From Shewanella sp. (GTDB lineage: Bacteria > Pseudomonadota > Gammaproteobacteria > Enterobacterales > Shewanellaceae): a DNA stretch of 64,000 bases. The notes beneath the pieces are model-generated. The model made no database searches and had not been told where the DNA came from. It saw only the letters and a list, made by a program, of their open reading frames with translations. The DNA lies in assembly GCF_013214165.1 (NCBI RefSeq), contig NZ_JABSSM010000023.1:3609-67608 (forward strand), written 5' to 3'. The position numbers were made by a program, and so were the translations under genes. Below are positions 156 through 61,803 of the stretch, in pieces (position 1 is the first letter of the stretch; each line of letters opens with the position of its first letter).

Positions 156-1411
156 CGTAGCGCCTCCTTATGCTGAGTGATCATTCTCAAAAAATGTAAC
201 CGTTCTTCCTCACCTAGCATCACTGCCTGCTTACCCATAACCGTTTTATACGTGCTTGCAAACCAACTGGATATCTCATTGACCAAAGTATCTAGCCATT
301 CATCCGTGTTTTCACGTTCTTCGATAAACTCATGGTGTAACCATATTTTTTGCACGCGAGTCAGTTGTGATATCTCGCTGTTATATTGCAACTCAGAAAT
401 ACTGCGAATTGCCCACATTTTGGCAATGATTTTGTCCATCACTTCGTGAATACGCGCATCGCGACTATTACGTAATTTTTTATTGTTTTTATAATCAATT
501 TTAAAGATGCGGTGCAGCGCTTGAAACACATCCTTATATTCATAAGGTCGAAACGATTCGCTAAAAAAATTACTACGTGGAAAATGAATGGTGCGTTTTT
601 CTATTTGTGGTGGTAGTGATGACAACAGATGTGCTTTACCCCCATTTTGATTATTCAGCACGCTGATATTTTGTGGTTTAGTGCCGCCATAACCAATCGT
701 GGTTAAACCATATATTTCTGCAAAACCCTGCTCACTAAATTCATTCTTTTTCCTTAATTCTCTTAGTACTTTAACCTCGTCATTAAAACGTAAATTATCG
801 ATACGCTTTCGCAGCTGATATAACATGCCCGAATTGGTTAATAGGGAAAGCTGGTGATAGTCCTCTGCAACAGGAAAATACACTTGTTTTATTTTAGAGC
901 TGGTAACATTTTCACTGCCACTTTCCGCCATCGCGACAAAACCTGCTTTTAACTCCGTATAAGAGACTTCTTTTAGCGTCAATAACTGCGCGGCCAGTTG
1001 TGAATCATTTTGAATATGTGTGAGCAGTTGCTGGCCATCGGTCATTTCTAAGGTTAAAAATTTATACACATCCAGTGCCGCAGCGTTACCCAATGCATCG
1101 GTATCAACAACCACATTACCGCTGCGTAAAAAACCATCTATCGCACTGTCTGCGTTGGCGATAACCGAACTAACGTAGCCATTTTTATTTTTTCGAGCAC
1201 TCGGATGACTAAACGTACAGGGGTGCGTCGCCATTGAGATCTGACCCGCTCTTTTCGCCGCGTTGGGCAGCCAAGTTGATAACGAGAATACCGCTTCACA
1301 TTGTTGTTGTGTTTCTCGAATTTGAGCTTCATCCATCGAAGCCTTTAGATTTTTCTTTAACCACGCTTCTTTTCGTTCTTCAAAGAAACGGGTGATAGCA
1401 GGATCTAACAT
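152..1411 (-). CDS. csy1: Type I-F Csy1 (Cas8f)
   Basis: 419 aa; motifs ATHPCTFSHP, DALGNAAALDVYKFL, SSKIKQVYFPV, GGTKPQNIS; sits between cas2-3 and csy2. Confidence 0.95.
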   Translation of the reverse strand: MLDPAITRFFEERKEAWLKKNLKASMDEAQIRETQQQCEAVFSLSTWLPNAAKRAGQISMATHPCTFSHPSARKNKNGYVSSVIANADSAIDGFLRSGNVVVDTDALGNAAALDVYKFLTLEMTDGQQLLTHIQNDSQLAAQLLTLKEVSYTELKAGFVAMAESGSENVTSSKIKQVYFPVAEDYHQLSLLTNSGMLYQLRKRIDNLRFNDEVKVLRELRKKNEFSEQGFAEIYGLTTIGYGGTKPQNISVLNNQNGGKAHLLSSLPPQIEKRTIHFPRSNFFSESFRPYEYKDVFQALHRIFKIDYKNNKKLRNSRDARIHEVMDKIIAKMWAIRSISELQYNSEISQLTRVQKIWLHHEFIEERENTDEWLDTLVNEISSWFASTYKTVMGKQAVMLGEEERLHFLRMITQHKEALR

Positions 1412-4400
1412 TGCTCTCTCCCTATTTTCACTAATCCAAATTGATCACTGTACTCGTACTTCTCACCGTCTCTGACAACAAAACTTAATTCGCCATAACG
1501 CAGTGATACTTGCCGTCTTGTTGGTAGTACGTCTGCGTCAATGTGTGCATCTAATACATCAAGGTAATCGCGTACTAGCCATAAATTATTTCGTTCACTT
1601 GTCGATAAACTCACCGGCGTTATTTGCCATATGTTGTCGACATTGATTAAATTACCCGCGATATCTGTTATACGTAAACCTTGCTCGTCTTTCTCGGTAA
1701 AATAACAATCTTCATCATTGCTATTTGCCACTAAAAATATTTTACTACTGGGCTCACTTTGCCTAAACGAATGCAGCAGTTGTGGCATTGCCGTTAAAAA
1801 CCACGTTGAATCAAGGTAGCCTTGCAGTGCTTGTGGGCCGAGCTGGGTATATTGAGTCAGTAATGCACCTATAGCGCGATGTTCAATACCCGCTAAATGC
1901 TGGCCTTGTGATTGATCTAATTGAGTAATGCGAGGAATCGCATTGATGCCGTTTTCAAGCGCTGCCAGGTTGACAATTTTACTCAGATCATGGGTTGGCA
2001 TTGGCTTAGTTTCATAGCCTGGTCGGGTAAAATAAACACCGCCTTGTTTGTCGCCTGCTATATATGCTTGGTAGTTATATTGCATTAAGCCAATATTAGC
2101 TTGAGTCACTTCGCCTTCGCGATGACGACGAACCCGCCCTGCTAATTGCACAATAGAGCGATAAGACGACGGTTCAACTACTGCCCAGTCAAAGTCATGA
2201 TCTCGCCCAACTTCCTCTACTGGGGTGGCAACCAGAATAAAAATAATCTGCTTGGCGTTACTGTTATCAAGGTGACCACGAATAATGGCATTGCTGAACG
2301 CCTTTGGCGCTTCGCCGGCCTTTTCTTTGCGCTTTAACACTTGGTCAAGGTGCTGTTCTTGTTCATGACGCAGTAACAAAACCTGCTGGCTATGATATGC
2401 CATGACCTTGACTTCGGTATCCGCTGGAAATTCAGCACTCAACAAGTAGCGAGTTAACTCAACACAAGGAGAAATATTGGCAACCCGGACAACACCAAAT
2501 GACACCTGTTTATTTGTCAGTTCGTCAACGGTATGGTGGTGTTGATGTTTCACTAACACCGCGTCTTTAATATGCTGAAAATAAGTCTCTTGCTTGCTTA
2601 TTCCATCTGTCGATTTAGTGTTAACCCTGTTGACTTCGCACGCCACAATATGGCCTTTACGTTTCGCGGTTTGATTGGTTAGCAACTTGATACGTTTATC
2701 AATAAAGGCATCGTGGAACGATTTATATTGCGCTATGGCGGGTTCACTATCACTAGATTTGACAGTTTCAACCTGAGTATACGACTCGTCAATCCAAGCA
2801 CAGCCTATAATGGCCTGTGACTCGGTACGTGATAGGCAATATAACTGCCAGCCTTTTTTGTAGGCATTAAAATAGCCTTCAGCCAAGCTTGGGGGAATGG
2901 TGGCAGAAGATATCATCACCTTACGCCCCAGCATGCCAGCAAGGTGAATAAGTCGCCCGATGGCAATTAAATCTGAACCGGTAAAATCATCAATTTCATC
3001 AATCACCAGATCAGACGACATCAAGCGTAATGACGGTAAAATATAACGACCACCGCGTTTGGTTTCTGTTGCCGCCATGATGTGATCAATCGTGCAAGCT
3101 AAAACGGGGGCATAAAGAAACTGCTTATCTTTATTTTTAGTCAGCACTGTCGTTAGGCCACTTTCAGGAATATCACAGTCATAATCAATAAACTCATCCA
3201 GTAACGACTCTGCCGATTCAGAACCCACGGCTTCCGCTGTCAATTCTTCCTCTGCTGCTACACGCTTATTATGTAAATCAGCCACCGCTTTAGACCCAAT
3301 TAACACGGCCAGTTGGCTTTTATCCAATCCGATACGTTGTCGATATTCATCGCCAGTCTGCAAGGTCAATGTGCGTAACCCAAGCGCTAAAATATAGCGC
3401 AAACTTTGCTGATCTACCGATAATGCTCGCATCACTTTGGCGTTAGCGAAGGTTTTACCACAGCCCGTACTCGCCATATTGACCGCAAAAAAACCAAACG
3501 CTTGCTTGGACTGCTGTTGGCGCCACTCCGTTATACTTTCTACCGCTTTATCTTGCCAACGAAATGCTTTAGGACTTGGCTTTCTTAACGCTTGAATATC
3601 TTGGGCTAACGGTGGTTCAGACTCAAAGGCAGGTAATAGATGCGCGGTATCCAGTGCCACTTTAGCGACGCCCACCAAGTGCTCATCTAATTTCTGCTTT
3701 AACTGATTAGTGTCTCGGTCGGTATTAGCAAATAAACCTGTGGTATCTTGCCAACCTTTGGCAGCATCTTGAGATGAATAGTTATGATCACCTAACATCA
3801 AACACAAACGCGCATGATGTAATACTAAACGATAGCTGCCGTCGGCGATCGCCTCTTTAATTAGTGGTAATTGATGTTGTAATTGGGTCGCCCTGCGTTT
3901 AACTAACTTATTCCATTGTGGAGACTGGGTTAATAAACCTTTGGGGAATTCAAAGCATTGTTTAACCCGGGCTTGATATTCAACTTCATCTTGGCGATTT
4001 TCATAGCCCCATTCTTGACTAATCTCACCCAGCAAATCGTCTATTCGCGGAAAGTCTTCTCCGAGATATTTGTTTCTTACTGCTTTTTTATCCCAAGAAT
4101 ACAAGGGTAATCTATGGTGCGAGACGAGCAACCAAGCGATGAGTTTGGCAGCATCTGGCAGTCCTTGCAGTGGTTTGCTGATGTTTTCACTCGAGACGGC
4201 TTTAATTCGCTGTTCGTCCAACTCGCCCATAATAAGCACTTTGAGCCAGTCTTCATCGCCAGCATCACTCGAACGAACCAGTGCATTAAGCAATAAACAA
4301 GATATCCATTCGTGTCGGATCGGATCACCTTTACATTTACTTTTACTGTCTGGGTTGAGCTTATTTTGAAACAGTCGCGATGCCTTGCCCCAATCATGTA

Positions 4401-4764
4401 ACAGCGCGGCAAGTCCGGTGAGCGATTTTATTAATGGCAGATACTTCCAATCATTTTCTATTTCCATGTTTAACAAGTTTCGCTTGGTAGTATTCACTGG
4501 CACCACTCCTTCACCATTAAACTTACTCTTATTGCCCACCACCCATATAAACTGACTGCGAGCGCGTGAGCGGATCCAATGGCAGCTCACCGCGGTACTT
4601 TTACTGGCAGTTTGTCGCAGCATCTTTTTTACCGCCTGCAAGCCGTCTTCAGTGATAATGGTTTGCCAGGTATTGTCACCGATGCGATTGGCAAAGGCGT
4701 CTAACACCCGCCGGGTTTTCTTTAAGGCGTTTTTCTCGCACATTGACACGAATGTAACCATCAT
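1405..4764 (-). CDS. cas3: Type I-F Cas2-3 fusion (Cas2 domain + HD nuclease + SF2 helicase)
   Basis: N-terminal Cas2-like MVTFVSMCEKNALKKTRRVLD; HD motif LLHDWGK; Walker A ASTGCGKT; DEID box; ATPVEEVGRDHDFD. Confidence 0.97.
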   Translation of the reverse strand: MMVTFVSMCEKNALKKTRRVLDAFANRIGDNTWQTIITEDGLQAVKKMLRQTASKSTAVSCHWIRSRARSQFIWVVGNKSKFNGEGVVPVNTTKRNLLNMEIENDWKYLPLIKSLTGLAALLHDWGKASRLFQNKLNPDSKSKCKGDPIRHEWISCLLLNALVRSSDAGDEDWLKVLIMGELDEQRIKAVSSENISKPLQGLPDAAKLIAWLLVSHHRLPLYSWDKKAVRNKYLGEDFPRIDDLLGEISQEWGYENRQDEVEYQARVKQCFEFPKGLLTQSPQWNKLVKRRATQLQHQLPLIKEAIADGSYRLVLHHARLCLMLGDHNYSSQDAAKGWQDTTGLFANTDRDTNQLKQKLDEHLVGVAKVALDTAHLLPAFESEPPLAQDIQALRKPSPKAFRWQDKAVESITEWRQQQSKQAFGFFAVNMASTGCGKTFANAKVMRALSVDQQSLRYILALGLRTLTLQTGDEYRQRIGLDKSQLAVLIGSKAVADLHNKRVAAEEELTAEAVGSESAESLLDEFIDYDCDIPESGLTTVLTKNKDKQFLYAPVLACTIDHIMAATETKRGGRYILPSLRLMSSDLVIDEIDDFTGSDLIAIGRLIHLAGMLGRKVMISSATIPPSLAEGYFNAYKKGWQLYCLSRTESQAIIGCAWIDESYTQVETVKSSDSEPAIAQYKSFHDAFIDKRIKLLTNQTAKRKGHIVACEVNRVNTKSTDGISKQETYFQHIKDAVLVKHQHHHTVDELTNKQVSFGVVRVANISPCVELTRYLLSAEFPADTEVKVMAYHSQQVLLLRHEQEQHLDQVLKRKEKAGEAPKAFSNAIIRGHLDNSNAKQIIFILVATPVEEVGRDHDFDWAVVEPSSYRSIVQLAGRVRRHREGEVTQANIGLMQYNYQAYIAGDKQGGVYFTRPGYETKPMPTHDLSKIVNLAALENGINAIPRITQLDQSQGQHLAGIEHRAIGALLTQYTQLGPQALQGYLDSTWFLTAMPQLLHSFRQSEPSSKIFLVANSNDEDCYFTEKDEQGLRITDIAGNLINVDNIWQITPVSLSTSERNNLWLVRDYLDVLDAHIDADVLPTRRQVSLRYGELSFVVRDGEKYEYSDQFGLVKIGREQC

Positions 4765-4780
4765 CAGATTTAACCTACCT

Positions 4781-4948
4781 TCATTCGTTATCCAAAAAGT
4801 TTTTTATCGCTATGCTTAACTTAACCATGAATATTAGTAATTCCCCACTCCTATGCCAAGACATACGGCACCGACACTTATCAATACATCTTCTTATTTT
4901 TATTATTAAATTAAGCATCACCCTGTACACAGCACATACTATTTTCAT
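4781..4948 (-). CDS. Putative 55-aa small ORF upstream of cas2-3 (candidate toxin or leader ORF)
   Basis: GAGAGG (4963-4958) 9 nt before ATG at 4948; MKIVCAVYRVMLNLIIKIRRCIDKCRCRMSWHRSGELLIFMVKLSIAIKNFLDNE; its TGA abuts the cas2-3 RBS; no recognised family. Confidence 0.4.
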   Translation of the reverse strand: MKIVCAVYRVMLNLIIKIRRCIDKCRCRMSWHRSGELLIFMVKLSIAIKNFLDNE

Positions 4949-4995
4949 TATAAGAAGCCTCTCATCCATTAAAGAGAGCACAGCTTACCCTACCC

Positions 4996-5024
4996 GATCT
5001 AACCGATCAACCTATGTATGTCAA
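4996..5024 (-). promoter_or_regulatory. Candidate sigma70 promoter for small ORF + cas2-3/csy operon
   Basis: Perfect TTGACA at 5024-5019; imperfect -10 at 17-nt (TAGATC) or 16-nt (TTAGAT) spacing. Confidence 0.55.
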
Positions 5025-5033
5025 AAATAAAAC
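5011..5033 (+). promoter_or_regulatory. PAM + protospacer matched by the mini-array spacer
   Basis: CC (5011-5012) then TATGTATGTCAAAAATAAAAC versus spacer TATGTATGTCAAAAATATAAA; first 17 nt identical, 19/21 overall. Confidence 0.9.
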
Positions 5034-5051
5034 TGTGACTTATGAAAGATA

Positions 5052-5080
5052 GTGACGCTAACCTATCAATCCAATATAAT
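5052..5080 (+). promoter_or_regulatory. sigma70 promoter of the mini-array
   Basis: GTGACG (5052-5057), N17, perfect TATAAT (5075-5080); predicted TSS about 5085-5087. Confidence 0.75.
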
Positions 5081-5081
5081 G

Positions 5082-5158
5082 ACCAGCTGCCGCACAGGCA
5101 GCTTAGAAATATGTATGTCAAAAATATAAAGTACACTGCCGAGCAGGCAGCCTAACAG
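5082..5158 (+). CRISPR. Mini-array (pseudo-repeat / 21-nt spacer / pseudo-repeat), antisense to cas genes; CreA/CreR-like regulatory crRNA
   Basis: R1 accagCTGCCGCACAGGCAGCTTAGAAA (last 23 nt identical to array repeat); spacer 5110-5130; R2 GTACACTGCCGAGCAGGCAGcctaacag (5-bp stem intact), overlapping the cas1 stop. Confidence 0.9.
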
Positions 5159-6168
5159 CCAGCAACATTATTGCTGGCTGTTTTTTCATTAAGGGCAATG
5201 TTTTTTACCGTCTCAAACATAAAATCGAGCGCTTTATGATCGGTAAATGCTTGCAGTACTTGCTGCCTAAACTCTTGTTCGGTGAGCTTTTCTTTAGCGC
5301 AAATAAAAGCCCAAGGTAAGACGATGGCATCTTTAATCAAATCGGCAATATCAAACACCAAGGCTCCCCTTCTGGTCTTGCCGTGCATCACGGCAAAACC
5401 GTGGGGTATGCCTAATACCCATAGGGTGGTTGCCGCTAACCCATAAGCGAGATAATTACCATGATTGAGAAAGTCGTTGGCCTTGTCGGTAGACTGATGC
5501 TGACGGGTAAAGTCTGACGTGTTAGTCACATTGGCGGCAAATTTGTAGAGCTGCTTGGTGAGCTGCGCTTCGGTTAACAAGAGATCTGACGGCTTAGCGG
5601 CGGTGATCATGCGTTGATCAAAACGCTGTAATGCAGCTTCAATATTGCTATCGCTAGTCGTAAAACCTGCTAATTTAAGATCCCTGTCTTTACCCCAAAC
5701 ATGATGTAAAAATTCAATCCGTGCTTGTTGAAATTGTTTGGCGGCATCGAGTCGTTTATTGTCATCAAACCAAAAACCCATCCAACCTTGTAAGTATTCC
5801 GTAGGGCGATATTCACTTTGTGGGGTAAACCATTCAATGGCATTGCCCATGTATAACGGTGTGCCTCCGCCACCAGAAAAACCAATCAATACGCCGGCTT
5901 GTGCCAACATTCTTACCGCAGCTTGGGTGATCGACGTACCATTGCCCAGTAACAGAACCGTGGTATTGGCAATGGGAATATTGAAGTATTGGTTTTCTTT
6001 CTTTGCCTCTGTCAGATACAACACCCGACCGTCTTTTTGCATCACTCGGCAATATTCGAGGTAATAGATGTTGGCACGCTTAGAGTGCAGTATCGCTTTG
6101 AGATCTGATGATGAAAAGTTATCCAATTTATCGGCCCGTATTATATTGTTGGGTGAGTAAGGTGCCAC
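5152..6168 (-). CDS. cas1: Type I-F Cas1
   Basis: DLKAILHSKRANIYYLEYCRV, NIPIANTT, HGKTRRGALVFDIADLIKD motifs; true start probably TTG at 6126 (MDNFSSSDLK) by analogy with I-F Cas1 N-termini. Confidence 0.97.
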   Translation of the reverse strand: MAPYSPNNIIRADKLDNFSSSDLKAILHSKRANIYYLEYCRVMQKDGRVLYLTEAKKENQYFNIPIANTTVLLLGNGTSITQAAVRMLAQAGVLIGFSGGGGTPLYMGNAIEWFTPQSEYRPTEYLQGWMGFWFDDNKRLDAAKQFQQARIEFLHHVWGKDRDLKLAGFTTSDSNIEAALQRFDQRMITAAKPSDLLLTEAQLTKQLYKFAANVTNTSDFTRQHQSTDKANDFLNHGNYLAYGLAATTLWVLGIPHGFAVMHGKTRRGALVFDIADLIKDAIVLPWAFICAKEKLTEQEFRQQVLQAFTDHKALDFMFETVKNIALNEKTASNNVAGC

Positions 6169-6258: not shown

Positions 6259-7086
6259 TTAATGGTTTAAAAGCCACTTTTTGATGTCATCTTGGTTGAC
6301 TAGAATTAATTGTTGGGCCTCTGGCGTGCCGTCTAACATTTTGGTATTGACCTGCAACTCCCGCAGCAAATAACTGGCCAGTGCGGCGCGGGTGTTAATA
6401 ATGAGTTGGCCGCCTTCCATTTGATAGTCATGGGCTAGTACTGCTTTTTTTGCAGGGGATAAGCGTGGATCTGGCTGTAAAATAAGTGGGATGTAGGTTT
6501 GCCAGTCACGATCTAAGCTGGCGTCTTGGTAAGGCCCATCTACAATGTCTGCCACGCCTCTGAAGCGGCTTAATACTAGGTCACGGTATTGTTGTGATTT
6601 TTCGCAATAACCTCTTACATGCCAACGTAATCCTGTATTGACGAATGTATGAGGATGAAAAATACGCCCATCACTCTCTGGATTAGACAGGGAAATATAA
6701 TTAGTTTCCATTCGTTTACGTTGCCGAATCGCTTTTACCAGTACCCTGATAACGTCGACTGAGACTCTGCGGGTGGGCAGGGCAAGATGGCTGACGTTAG
6801 CGGTAATGGGAGAGTGTTCATGAATTTGCTTTGTGTCAAACCACTGAAGATATTGATTAATGTCTGATGACATATAGTGTGCGATAAATGTTTTACTGGG
6901 CTTAAAACCATGGCTGGTTTGAATTAAGTTATCAGGAAACTGTTCATTGTAACGTTTAAAGTCTTGATAAGCCTGTTGGCGACTGATAGCAAATTGTTCA
7001 GTGAGTTGTTTATTCGTTACAGTGCCTTCCCACCATGCGACTAGTTCAATGAACAGTTTCCTCTGTTGTAAATTATTTGTAGCCAT
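6259..7086 (-). CDS. wHTH-WYL transcriptional regulator, CapW-like
   Basis: N-terminal IELVAWWEG...FAISRQQAYQDF (wHTH); WYL core FHPHTFVNTGLRWHVRGYCEKSQQYRDLVLSRF; C-terminal PDPRLS...DYQM...TRAAL dimerisation-type segment. Confidence 0.85.
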   Translation of the reverse strand: MATNNLQQRKLFIELVAWWEGTVTNKQLTEQFAISRQQAYQDFKRYNEQFPDNLIQTSHGFKPSKTFIAHYMSSDINQYLQWFDTKQIHEHSPITANVSHLALPTRRVSVDVIRVLVKAIRQRKRMETNYISLSNPESDGRIFHPHTFVNTGLRWHVRGYCEKSQQYRDLVLSRFRGVADIVDGPYQDASLDRDWQTYIPLILQPDPRLSPAKKAVLAHDYQMEGGQLIINTRAALASYLLRELQVNTKMLDGTPEAQQLILVNQDDIKKWLLNH

Positions 7087-7297: not shown

Positions 7298-8646
7298 TTT
7301 CTAAGCTAGCTGCGCAGCAGTGAACCGGCCGGTGCTGTTATCTAATCCTCATGTGATTTTCTAAGCTGCCTGTGCGGCAGTGAACGTATAACGTTATCGG
7401 GTCCAGGTTCCTCGAGTTTTCTAATCTGCCTGTGCGGCAGTGAACCGTAGGAGGGGCTTCAGCCCCGATGCATATAGATTTCTAAGCTGCCTGTGCGGCA
7501 GTGAACGTACCAAACAAATTTACGCTAGTCGCTAGGCTTTTCTAAGCTGCCTGTGCGGCAGTGAACACCAAACTAAACCTACAACGGCCCAGCTCGCATT
7601 TCTAAGCTGCCTGTGCGGCAGTGAACTGCTTCGCGACGCGCTGTTATGAACACCGCCGTTTCTAAGCTGCCTGTGCGGCAGTGAACCGGGTAACACTAGA
7701 AACTTTAGACTCGGTGATTTTCTAAGCTGCCTGTGCGGCAGTGAACTGAATATCGATACTCAGGCCATATTTTTGGATTTTCTAAGCTGCCTGTGCGGCA
7801 GTGAACATTATTAACGTTAAGCTCTAGGTTTTCGACTCTTTCTAAGCTGCCTGTGCGGCAGTGAACGCGGACGCTTTGCAGTGCGCATATACGCTGGATT
7901 TCTAAGCTGCCTGTGCGGCAGTGAACCGGATACTGTTCTCGAGTATTACAAAATCGACTTTCTAAGCTGCCTGTGCGGCAGTGAACCCCAGAGTCGGTGA
8001 AAGCAAAATTTTCTGGATTTTCTAAGCTGCCTGTGCGGCAGTGAACCAAGGCGGCGCACTGGTTGTTGTTGTTCGGGTTTTCTAAGCTGCCTGTGCGGCA
8101 GTGAACTGCTAGCAATTCGGCGGCGCTGTTGTCTTCTGTTTCTAAGCTGCCTGTGCGGCAGTGAATGCAGAGGCTAGACGCATAGAAGACGCTCGACTTT
8201 TCTAAGCTGCCTGTGCGGCAGTGAACCCTACAGAGTTTCTAATAGAGTCGATGCGTGATTTCTAAGCTGCCTGTGCGGCAGTGAACTAATCAGCTAACGA
8301 TAACCTCACAAGTTGAAATTTCTAAGCTGCCTGTGCGGCAGTGAACGAGATCAAAGAGTTCAATATGTTTGTCGGCACTTTCTAAGCTGCCTGTGCGGCA
8401 GTGAACGCCTATCCTCAACACTCACCCACTCGCTTTGTTTTCTAAGCTGCCTGTGCGGCAGTGAACAGGGGCGGCAGGGGCGCACGATGATGTGTACATT
8501 TCTAAGCTGCCTGTGCGGCAGTGAACAGTGTGAAGAAAAATACTTAACTTATGCTGCTTTTCTAAGCTGCCTGTGCGGCAGTGAACTAGGTGTGACATCG
8601 GTTAAATCTGCTGTGAGCTTTCTAAGCTGCCTGTGCGGCAGTGAAC
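7298..8646 (-). CRISPR. Type I-F CRISPR array, 23 repeats / 22 spacers
   Basis: 28-nt repeat GTTCACTGCCGCACAGGCAGCTTAGAAA (minus); 32-nt spacers (one of 33); degenerate terminal repeat at 7298-7325 (4 mismatches) and single-base variants at 7418 and 8139; leader on the right. Confidence 0.99.
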
Positions 8647-36838: not shown

Positions 36839-37075
36839 TTATTGGCGGGTATAAATCTGTAGAATGAGGGTCTTGTTATTGCCTTTAAGCCACTAAGCCT
36901 TTAAAAACTGTAAAAGCCATGACAAATCAGCATAAGCATTATTGGCGGGTATAGATCTGTAGAATGAAGGTCTTGTTATTGCCACTAAGCCTTTAAAAAC
37001 TGTAAAAGCCATGACAAATCAGCATAAGCATTATTGGCGGGTATAGATCTGTAGGATAGGTGTCTTGTTATTGCC
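36839..37075 (-). repeat. Three diverged copies of the last 45 nt of the 37031 gene with a shared 47-nt linker
   Basis: Copies at 36839-36883, 36939-36983, 37031-37075; periods 100 and 92 bp. Confidence 0.95.
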
Positions 37076-37462
37076 AAATGAGAGTGTCATTGAGATGCTT
37101 TCTCCTCGTTTAAACTTCTGCTTATAGGTAAGGGGAGAGAGACGTCCGCCATCTCCCATGAGTGCCATAAGCTGATCACTTTTAAAAATTCGGCTACCCG
37201 ATGATTGATTTTCCAGGGTCACCACGGCGCGACGATCGCCTTTTTCATTACTCATCAAGATGTAATTGACCACAATAAAGTCACTAATTTTCGGCTGTAT
37301 ATCACCATCATTGGTGAAATTAAGCTCAACATCATTAGAGACGATTCTGTCGACACTAAAAACATCACTCAGCTCGTTTTCGTCTGGCTTGTTAGCGGAA
37401 AAACTACTAAAACTGATCAAGGAGGTGACCAATAATAGGCTTGTGGTTAATTGACGGTTCAA
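37031..37462 (-). CDS. Secreted hypothetical protein, 143 aa
   Basis: Signal peptide; no family recognised. Confidence 0.8.
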   Translation of the reverse strand: MNRQLTTSLLLVTSLISFSSFSANKPDENELSDVFSVDRIVSNDVELNFTNDGDIQPKISDFIVVNYILMSNEKGDRRAVVTLENQSSGSRIFKSDQLMALMGDGGRLSPLTYKQKFKRGESISMTLSFGNNKTPILQIYTRQ

Positions 37463-61670: not shown

Positions 61671-61803
61671 TAGTAGGAGAACAAATTTTTAGCCATTGAC
61701 TATGGCTGGCACCATTAATACTCATAGTAGGAGAACAAATTTTTAGCCATTGACTATGGCTGGCACCATTAATACTCCTCGCTGGCACCATTAATACTCC
61801 CTC
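61671..61803. repeat. Nested tandem duplications at upstream end of Y1 transposase element
   Basis: 53-bp unit at 61671-61723 and 61725-61777 (contains hairpin AGCCAT-TGACT-ATGGCT), plus 22-23-bp GCTGGCACCATTAATACTCC(C)TC duplicated at 61759-61803. Confidence 0.92.

Follow-up and report, generated by a model that had tools for sequence, protein, structure and literature searches.

The DNA studied here was a stretch of 64,000 nucleotides (nt) from Shewanella sp. (assembly GCF_013214165.1, contig NZ_JABSSM010000023.1, positions 3,609 to 67,608 of the forward strand), and this whole stretch is called the window. It was found to contain a type I-F CRISPR locus, in which all the cas genes of this part of the window were located on the minus strand. 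The region between cas1 and cas2-3 contained an open reading frame (ORF) of 55 codons and, on the opposite strand, a degenerate mini-array of two repeats whose pseudo-spacer partially matched a site beside the putative promoter of the ORF. A first-pass annotation, made from the sequence alone, had described the ORF as a candidate toxin resembling CreT or CreP and loaded with rare codons. Our analysis points, tentatively, to a CRISPR-repressed small protein and away from an RNA toxin acting through its codons. The features of the junction, including Shine-Dalgarno (SD) sequences and a protospacer adjacent motif (PAM), were as follows.

4765-5151: cas1/cas2-3 intergenic region of 387 nt, which holds the ORF
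4765-5195 (approximate): accessory cassette of ~430 bp, its extent taken from comparison with cassette-free relatives
4774-4780, minus strand: SD sequence of cas2-3, AGGTAGG, adjoining the ORF stop and 9 nt before the cas2-3 ATG
4781-4948, minus strand: ORF MKIVCAVYRVMLNLIIKIRRCIDKCRCRMSWHRSGELLIFMVKLSIAIKNFLDNE, with ATG at 4948-4946, 55 sense codons and the stop codon TGA at 4783-4781
4958-4963, minus strand: SD-like GAGAGG of moderate strength, 9 nt 5' of the ORF ATG
4982-5010, minus strand: putative promoter of the ORF and cas2-3, with -35 TTGATC at 5010-5005, a 17-nt spacer and -10 TAAGCT at 4987-4982
5011-5012 and 5013-5033, plus strand: CC PAM and 21-nt partial protospacer
5052-5080, plus strand: mini-array promoter, GTGACG-17-TATAAT, 10/12 to consensus
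5082-5109, plus strand: repeat PsiR1, matching the array repeat GTTCACTGCCGCACAGGCAGCTTAGAAA at 23/28 positions, with the stem-loop and the 8-nt handle CTTAGAAA intact
5110-5130, plus strand: pseudo-spacer PsiS, TATGTATGTCAAAAATATAAA, 21 nt against the 32-nt spacers of the main array
5131-5158, plus strand: repeat PsiR2, matching the array repeat at 21/28 positions and retaining the stem
5154-5190, plus strand: mini-array terminator, a hairpin with a T-run, overlapping the last cas1 codons

PsiS and the protospacer (repeat family D2) were identical in 19 of 21 nt; positions 1-17, 19, and 20 matched, and positions 18 and 21 were mismatched. Position 18 is one of the every-sixth positions, and mismatches at every sixth position have been reported to be typical of type I-F guides. 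The string of PAM and 17 nt was unique in the window, and none of 100 shuffles gave two matches. On the minus strand, the PAM was found to abut directly on the -35 hexamer TTGATC. The targeted promoter that the first-pass annotation had placed upstream of the ORF was thus found with its CC PAM and its unique, partially matching site, the promoter itself being putative. We took TTGATC and TAAGCT as the promoter because GGTTGATC, the 17-nt spacer, and a TAnnnT hexamer were kept in a diverged metagenome locus (L088), because another locus (L169) contained TTGAAA-17-TAATAT at the same place beside its PAM, and because the -35 of Acinetobacter baylyi ADP1 is also present directly downstream of the CreA target. 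Transcription beginning near 4975 would give a leader of ~210 nt, nearly filled by the ORF, and the overlap of cas2-3 with csy1 places both genes in one operon downstream of the ORF. We also considered that phages might carry a mimic of the pseudo-spacer (Cracr); six viral contigs matched the seed pattern, none of them with repeat-like cores nearby, and these were therefore rejected as chance matches.

The ribosome-binding sequence GAGAGG, the ATG at 4948, and the stop codon adjoining the ribosome-binding site of cas2-3 were all present where the earlier annotation had read them. It had also proposed that an upstream CTCTC could pair with the ribosome-binding sequence; the CUCUC at 4978-4974 did pair with GAGAG in the minimum-energy fold, but this stem spans the site where transcription is predicted to begin, and a match of 5 bp is trivial. 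The leaders of the window and L088 did not fold better than shuffles (z-scores of -0.41 and +0.45), and a conserved RNA structure shared by the two was rejected, the consensus fold reaching only -5.75 kcal/mol. An imperfect inverted repeat was present inside the ORF, with arms of 26 nt at 4812-4837 and 4893-4918 that were 77% complementary; one arm contained the ATA/AAA/AGA run described below. The inverted repeat was not conserved in L088, and its fold was no better than that of shuffles. Two promoter-like sequences were also found inside the ORF. TTATCA-17-TATTAT (4878-4906, plus strand) would give an RNA antisense to the ORF start and its SD sequence, reading into the mini-array, and this match was not conserved in L088. 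TTGGCA-17-TAATAT (4859-4831, minus strand) could give cas2-3 a start of its own; an internal promoter uncoupling cas2-3 from the targeted promoter was nevertheless rejected, as the site was a consensus match only and was absent in L088.

Only one diverged homologous cassette was found, that of L088, where Cas1 was 86% identical and the parts of the cassette were present in the same order as in the window. It contained a hairpin at the cas1 stop, analogous to the window terminator, followed by an antisense mini-array with a 20-nt pseudo-spacer and its own promoter. The target was CC-flanked and matched in 17 of the first 18 positions, with a mismatch at position 12, and GGTTGATC was located beside the PAM with the same 17-nt spacing to TATTGT. 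An SD-like GAGAG was present 7 nt before the GTG start of a co-linear ORF of 56 codons, which also began with M-K and ended 31 nt before cas2-3; the window ORF ended 16 nt before the cas2-3 ATG. The two ORFs aligned without gaps over 50 codons, with 29% amino-acid identity and 47% nucleotide identity. Conserved positions were found at both ends, M1 K2, R9 V10 M11, L14 I15, and R19 in the first part and M41 V42 K43 L44 and I48 K49 N50 F51 in the second, whereas the linker between them was variable. The ORF of L088 was longer than 99.8% of the dinucleotide shuffles of its own intergenic region (P=0.002). Seven residues were identical but encoded by different codons in the ORF frame (K2, R9, V10, L14, R19, L44, and N50), against 1-5 such pairs in the other five frames and 3.2 +/- 1.7 in the column-shuffled null (P=0.037). 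The first-pass annotation had named lack of ORF conservation in homologous loci among the findings that would speak against it, and the only homologous cassette found was seen to keep the co-linear ORF. The co-linear frame, the SD sequence, the M-K start, and the excess of synonymous differences together suggest that the frame was selected, and on this comparison we regard maintenance of the reading frame by selection as probable.

The run ATA ATA AAA ATA AGA AGA reported by the first-pass annotation was present at codons 15-20 of the ORF, and its codon tallies were reproduced: isoleucine was encoded by ATA seven times and ATT once, and arginine by AGA twice, AGG twice, CGG once, and CGT once. 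The label 'rare', however, did not survive comparison with the 12,665 codons of genes in the 64-kb window, in which ATA accounted for 24-26% of isoleucine codons and AGA for 11-16% of arginine codons, with usage in the same range in 24 long window ORFs and in cas1, cas2-3, and csy1. ATA and AGA are therefore not rare in the genes of the window. The ORF consisted of 36% A and 8% C and contained no proline codon. Given this base composition, the ATA share of isoleucine was weakly elevated (P=0.025), and composition accounted for all of the AGA, AGG, and CGG use (P=0.63). In-frame ATA, AGA, AGG, and CGG codons numbered 12, against 5.2 in shuffles (P=0.0025), and five such codons within six codons were likewise unusual against mononucleotide shuffles (P=0.002); the codon set was picked after looking, and these cluster P values are therefore optimistic. 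In L088, the ORF contained four ATA, four ATT, and one AGA codons, with only six ATA, AGA, AGG, or CGG codons and no run. We read the codon bias as a by-product of C-poor DNA with 33% GC; the reading frame appears to be under selection, the peptide only weakly so, and the ATA and AGA codons appear not to be.

The peptides of the window and L088 were 55-56 amino acids (aa) long, with net charges of +7 and +6 and 56-59% hydrophobic residues, and both were strongly amphipathic (hydrophobic moment 0.57-0.67). From the two-sequence alignment, AlphaFold predicted two helices joined by a short loop (predicted local distance difference test score of 78). AT-rich DNA alone tends to encode peptides rich in K, I, L, F, and N, and the cationic two-helix profile is therefore suggestive only. 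The highest Kyte-Doolittle mean over 19 residues was 1.34 in the window and 1.47 in L088, with the helices interrupted by K and R. A membrane toxin of a type I toxin-antitoxin system, such as Hok or TisB, was tried and rejected, as the peptides were without a single strongly hydrophobic transmembrane helix (hydropathy mean 1.3-1.5). To the eye, the 3' end of the ORF resembled a degraded version of the end of cas1 (LIFMVKLSIAIKNFLDNE vs LDFMFE---TVKNIALNE), but the likeness was not significant (P=0.2-0.6 vs shuffles), and this origin was rejected as well. No matches to the ORF were found by tblastn among phages or by blastn among plasmids.

The cassette was found to be an insertion between two genes that usually overlap. 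A 4-nt overlap (ATGA) of cas1 with cas2-3 was present in 52 of the 78 genome loci that were related, and a gap of more than 40 nt between them was present in only 22 of 75 related metagenome loci. In Shewanella benthica KT99, whose Cas1 was 95% identical, homology broke after the Cas1 residues VKNIAL (~5195) and resumed at the cas2-3 ATG. A sediment metagenome run of another study (X5) contained a 78x contig joining position 4740 of the window to 5213, in which 78 other letters replaced 472 nt between near-identical cas1 and cas2-3 flanks; the cassette-bearing form was present in the same run at only 3.6x. Near-identical loci with and without the cassette therefore exist, which indicates a natural presence/absence polymorphism, and a sporadic distribution has been described for type I-F regulatory mini-arrays. 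Metagenome contigs L081-L083, from the same organism, contained an identical copy of the 387-nt region. DNA scans of 185,579 species genomes gave no matches for either the pseudo-spacer pattern or the conserved 3' block of the ORF.

Other inserts were observed at the same junction in related loci. By eye, and without domain search, look-alikes of a RelE/ParE-type toxin with a ribbon-helix-helix antitoxin were seen in L013 (5978-6606) and L017 (5978-6602), and look-alikes of VapBC on the opposite strand in L022 (5972-6666) and L045 (5996-7170). The cas1/cas2-3 junction looks like a hotspot for cargo of the addiction type. Relatives from Thalassotalea and Colwellia contained a different conserved ORF of ~80 aa (…IYADLWIDSKTAIVPLNEIVRIRLMDECDP…) between cas1 and cas2-3, without a mini-array, in L002 (6090-6330), L003 (3717-3969), and the intergenic region of L021, and probably also in L093, L107, and L110, whose intergenic regions were 368-421 nt long. 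In L006, L014, L068, and L078, the cas1/cas2-3 intergenic regions were filled with palindromic repeats resembling repetitive extragenic palindromic elements (TGTAGGTCG…GCCCGACAA units).

Simple CreR-like mini-arrays with repeats of the same family usually had 64-105 nt between the PAM and the cas gene and contained no ORF, whereas in the window this distance was 247 nt and was filled by the ORF. L169 (OX638335.1, a metagenome-assembled genome) contained two antisense mini-arrays, at 1509-1561 and 5198-5290 (reverse-complemented copy). The mini-array between cas1 and cas2-3 had a CC-flanked target abutting TTGAAA-17-TAATAT, and the leader ORF ended in an ATGA overlap with cas2-3. The second mini-array was located between cas2-3 and csy1 and was followed by a 58-aa ORF (MAKRYVRKETLTV…; 5370-5546). 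In the cas2-3/csy1 region of two Pseudoalteromonas loci, L164 (4857-4934) and L180 (7008-7097), a conserved short hydrophobic ORF, MVLIFCFVLVRMVKNRA(T/A)ESNSLYG, started at the mini-array target, leaving a leader of ~210 nt before csy1, and may be further CRISPR-regulated cargo.

From these observations, we tentatively read the ORF as protein-coding cargo of a CreA/CreR-type cassette at the cas1/cas2-3 junction, that is, a CRISPR-repressed small protein with the logic of CreP but not homologous to it. Judged from the published type I-F CreA systems, Csy4 would process the mini-array transcript, and Csy loaded with the mini-array RNA would bind the partial target without recruiting Cas2-3 and block the promoter. 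The ORF and cas2-3/csy would be repressed together and released together on Csy loss, titration, or inhibition by an anti-CRISPR. The comparison with L088 suggests that the ORF would be translated from the ATG at 4948 into a cationic (+7), amphipathic, two-helix peptide of 55 aa, and this peptide may follow the logic of CreP, serving as a guard or inhibiting growth once Csy has failed. By analogy, Csy-guided repression of the ORF promoter is very probable, because the anatomy of the locus fits the experimentally established behavior of type I-F CreA and mini-array RNAs; toxicity of the ORF product, judged from sequence, is possible but doubtful. The small-protein reading is favored because ~170 nt of the cassette are spent on a frame kept in a very diverged relative, and because simple mini-arrays manage with the short, ORF-free distance given above. 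A wider claim would make the ORF the founding member of a family of small protein toxins that CRISPR represses and that have no relation to KilAC/CreP. Its vehicle would be a compact, mobile cassette of ~430 bp, made up of the terminator, the antisense creA, the target with the promoter, and the toxin, which inserts at the cas1/cas2-3 junction, places the toxin and the whole cas2-3-csy operon under Csy self-repression, and joins an addiction module with Cas autoregulation in one transcript; this we consider unlikely on present evidence.

Several observations weigh against a Csy-repressed protein. The hexamers of the ORF promoter were weak (7/12 to consensus) and were not flagged by the consensus scan. 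No terminator-like site was found in the scan between the ORF and cas2-3, so that the targeted promoter is expected to transcribe the ORF and cas2-3-csy together, and any expression of the cas operon would then bring a potent toxin with it. The peptide contained no hydrophobic segment of transmembrane grade on the Kyte-Doolittle scale. When 5.8 billion proteins were searched through a word index, nothing but the query ORFs came back; a profile search covering 1.84 billion representatives retrieved the two ORFs and two spurious repeat proteins only, and back-translated pattern scans of genome and viral collections gave no homologue. The ORF had no match in Pfam, PADLOC, or PHROGs at permissive E-values, and a fold search of the PDB gave 0 matches, so that the resemblance to CreP suggested by the first-pass annotation does not extend to homology. 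Gene callers passed over the ORF on long contigs, and three metatranscriptomes of the same study contained nothing matching the region, which was seen in DNA metagenome runs only. When stop-containing codons were ignored, the mean substitution score in the ORF frame was no better than in frame +1; the antisense frame was also open in both loci, but its scores were lower. All the comparative statistics rest on one pair, with two members only, and the L169 leader ORF was rejected as a third member of the family (E=6.1, not significant) despite a shared in-frame VCAV.

A serious rival is pure cas autoregulation of the CreR kind, in which the ORF is a cis-acting translated leader, selected only for being translated, its peptide is without a role in trans, and the translation of cas2-3 is at most adjusted by slow codons; a cis effect on cas2-3 translation had also been named as an alternative by the first-pass annotation. 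The insertion would have broken the ATGA coupling that most of the genome relatives retain, and an ORF ending by the cas2-3 SD sequence would bring ribosomes to cas2-3; translation would also shield an AT-rich leader of 210 nt from Rho and RNases. A translated leader would explain why the frame was kept but not its sequence, why the ORF ends beside the cas2-3 SD sequence, and why the unrelated leader ORF of L169 ends in an ATGA overlap with cas2-3. In its favor, the ORF spans nearly the whole leader with its stop close to cas2-3 in both loci, the peptide diverged fast while Cas1 stayed at 86% identity, no frame-specific amino-acid similarity was left once stops were excluded, and no terminator separates the ORF from cas2-3. 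On the other side, cas2-3 has an acceptable SD sequence of its own in the window and in L088, the synonymous-difference excess suggests constraint on the peptide, and the simple CreR cassettes indicate that a 55-codon ORF is unneeded for regulation alone. We hold the translated leader to be somewhat improbable.

The ORF may also be open by accident in AT-rich cassette DNA, with only the mini-array, target, and promoter being functional. The caveat that AT-rich non-coding DNA yields such codons by chance was already part of the first-pass annotation, and it agrees with the codon shares found here. In dinucleotide shuffles of the 387-nt intergenic region, the length of the window ORF (66 codons from any start) had a P of only 0.03, for an ORF picked for being long; a 72-codon ORF was present on the opposite strand of the same region, and the ORF was an orphan in both protein searches. 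An accident fits poorly, however, with the length, start context, and frame kept in L088 despite ~53% nucleotide differences (P=0.002, for length alone), and with the excess of synonymous pairs, and we think it rather unlikely. An RNA toxin of the CreT type, in which the derepressed ORF stalls ribosomes on the codon run and sequesters tRNA-Ile(CAU) and tRNA-Arg(UCU) until growth is arrested, would suit the CreA-like guide, the targeted promoter, the SD sequence with its ATG, and the cluster of five codons in six, and it has precedents in Haloarcula hispanica (AGA AGA) and Halobacterium hubeiense (AUA). The codons, however, are not rare in window genes, the run does not begin until codon 15 and has no counterpart in L088, the SD sequence is only moderate, and 55 codons without a stable hairpin or terminator contrast with the 15-nt mini-ORF and stable hairpin of Pseudomonas aeruginosa. 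The CreT mechanism proposed by the first-pass annotation is thus very improbable, and the CRISPR-repressed small protein remains the reading that we prefer.

The other features of the locus were as follows.

152-1411: csy1, overlapping cas2-3; Pfam Cas_Csy1
1405-4764, minus strand: cas2-3, 1119 aa, ATG at 4764; Pfam Cas3_I-F_Cas2
5152-6168, minus strand: cas1, 338 aa, its last ~14 codons being part of the inserted cassette
6259-7086, minus strand: WYL-domain regulator with a weak helix-turn-helix match, directly upstream of cas1
~7365-8641: CRISPR array with repeat GTTCACTGCCGCACAGGCAGCTTAGAAA on the minus strand, 22 repeat cores and 32-nt spacers

Homologues of the WYL-domain regulator were found in 87 of 163 related type I-F loci, which makes it a feature of the clade, unrelated to the cassette. 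Elsewhere in the window, the tandem-repeat scan found a 92-nt duplication at 36889-37076 (two copies, 95% matches) and a 54-nt duplication at 61671-61777 (two copies, 100%).

Published work already describes mini-arrays near cas3 in type I-F loci, toxins repressed by CreA, and Cas autorepression. The window differs from them in the position at the cas1/cas2-3 junction, in the single transcript that links the cas operon with a conserved orphan ORF, and in the two-member ORF family. If the peptide is toxic, it would be a second, unrelated class of protein toxin guarded by type I-F effectors. It would also be the first module of this kind to lie at the cas1/cas2-3 junction, the toxin and the cas operon sharing one Csy-repressed transcript, and would have implications for the way in which CRISPR loci withstand anti-CRISPRs and being lost themselves. 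If the ORF is only a translated leader, it would show an inserted regulatory cassette compensating for the broken translational coupling of cas1 and cas2-3. Either way, a 'rare-codon run' in intergenic DNA that is AT-rich argues only weakly for a CreT-like toxin unless host codon usage and conservation in relatives are considered, and the sediment metagenome holding both alleles offers a natural comparison.

Among the known systems, the archaeal type I-B CreTA modules of H. hispanica and H. hubeiense produce short RNAs that sequester a rare tRNA after translation starts. This type of sequestration needs tandem rare-tRNA codons near the start of a short, highly translated, hairpin-stabilized RNA, and in archaeal CreT the tandem rare codons are present right after the start codon. 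CreA of H. hispanica also represses the cas8 promoter. The window resembles these modules in that a CreA-like guide is aimed at the putative promoter of an ORF that is led by an SD sequence and contains AGA AGA and ATA ATA; an adjacent degenerate mini-CRISPR with Cas6-type stem-loops was present, and its pseudo-spacer partially matched a PAM-flanked site at the putative promoter. In contrast to archaeal CreT, its codons are not rare, its run begins 14 codons in and is absent in L088, and its ORF is long and without a hairpin. The type I-F modules CreTA1 and CreTA2 of P. aeruginosa have CreA spacers of 20-26 nt and a CC PAM and tolerate mismatches at every sixth position; their CreT consists of a mini-ORF of 15 nt in which two proline codons follow one another; it needs a GC-rich stable hairpin and lies between cas2-3 and csy1, and the module occupies a long cas intergenic region absent from model strains (bioRxiv 10.64898/2026.06.02.729485). 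The window shares with them the subtype, the short pseudo-spacer, the CC PAM, and a module embedded in a long cas intergenic region. Identity with the proline-codon CreT was rejected, as the window ORF has neither a proline codon nor a GC-rich hairpin.

CreR and other regulatory mini-arrays are responsible for Cas autorepression (bioRxiv 10.1101/2023.03.10.532045; Shmakov et al., PMC10120712). As in CreR, a degenerate mini-array reading opposite to cas3 was found, with the seed beside the better-conserved repeat and the target in the promoter of the downstream cas operon; the guide partially matched a PAM-flanked site at the putative promoter reading into cas2-3-csy1, and presence was sporadic among near-identical loci. 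CreR, however, is defined without an accompanying toxin gene, whereas the window contained a conserved 55-codon ORF between promoter and cas2-3, and the characterized type I-F CreR lies between cas3 and cas8f/csy1, whereas the window module lies between cas1 and cas2-3. In the type I-F CrePA system of A. baylyi ADP1, a CreA RNA is accompanied by the protein toxin CreP, a 103-aa KilAC-domain protein located between cas2-3 and csy1 (bioRxiv 10.1101/2024.01.05.574328). The window ORF differs from CreP in its length of 55 aa, in having no match to KilAC or any other domain, and in its position between cas1 and cas2-3. The two loci are alike in their subtype, in a degenerate two-repeat creA with a partial match of ~19 nt to a CC-flanked target, in the -35 directly downstream of that target, and in an SD-led protein ORF followed by cas genes. 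The promoter geometry of the CreP type was thus present in the window sequence, and by analogy the promoter would be repressed in the same way.

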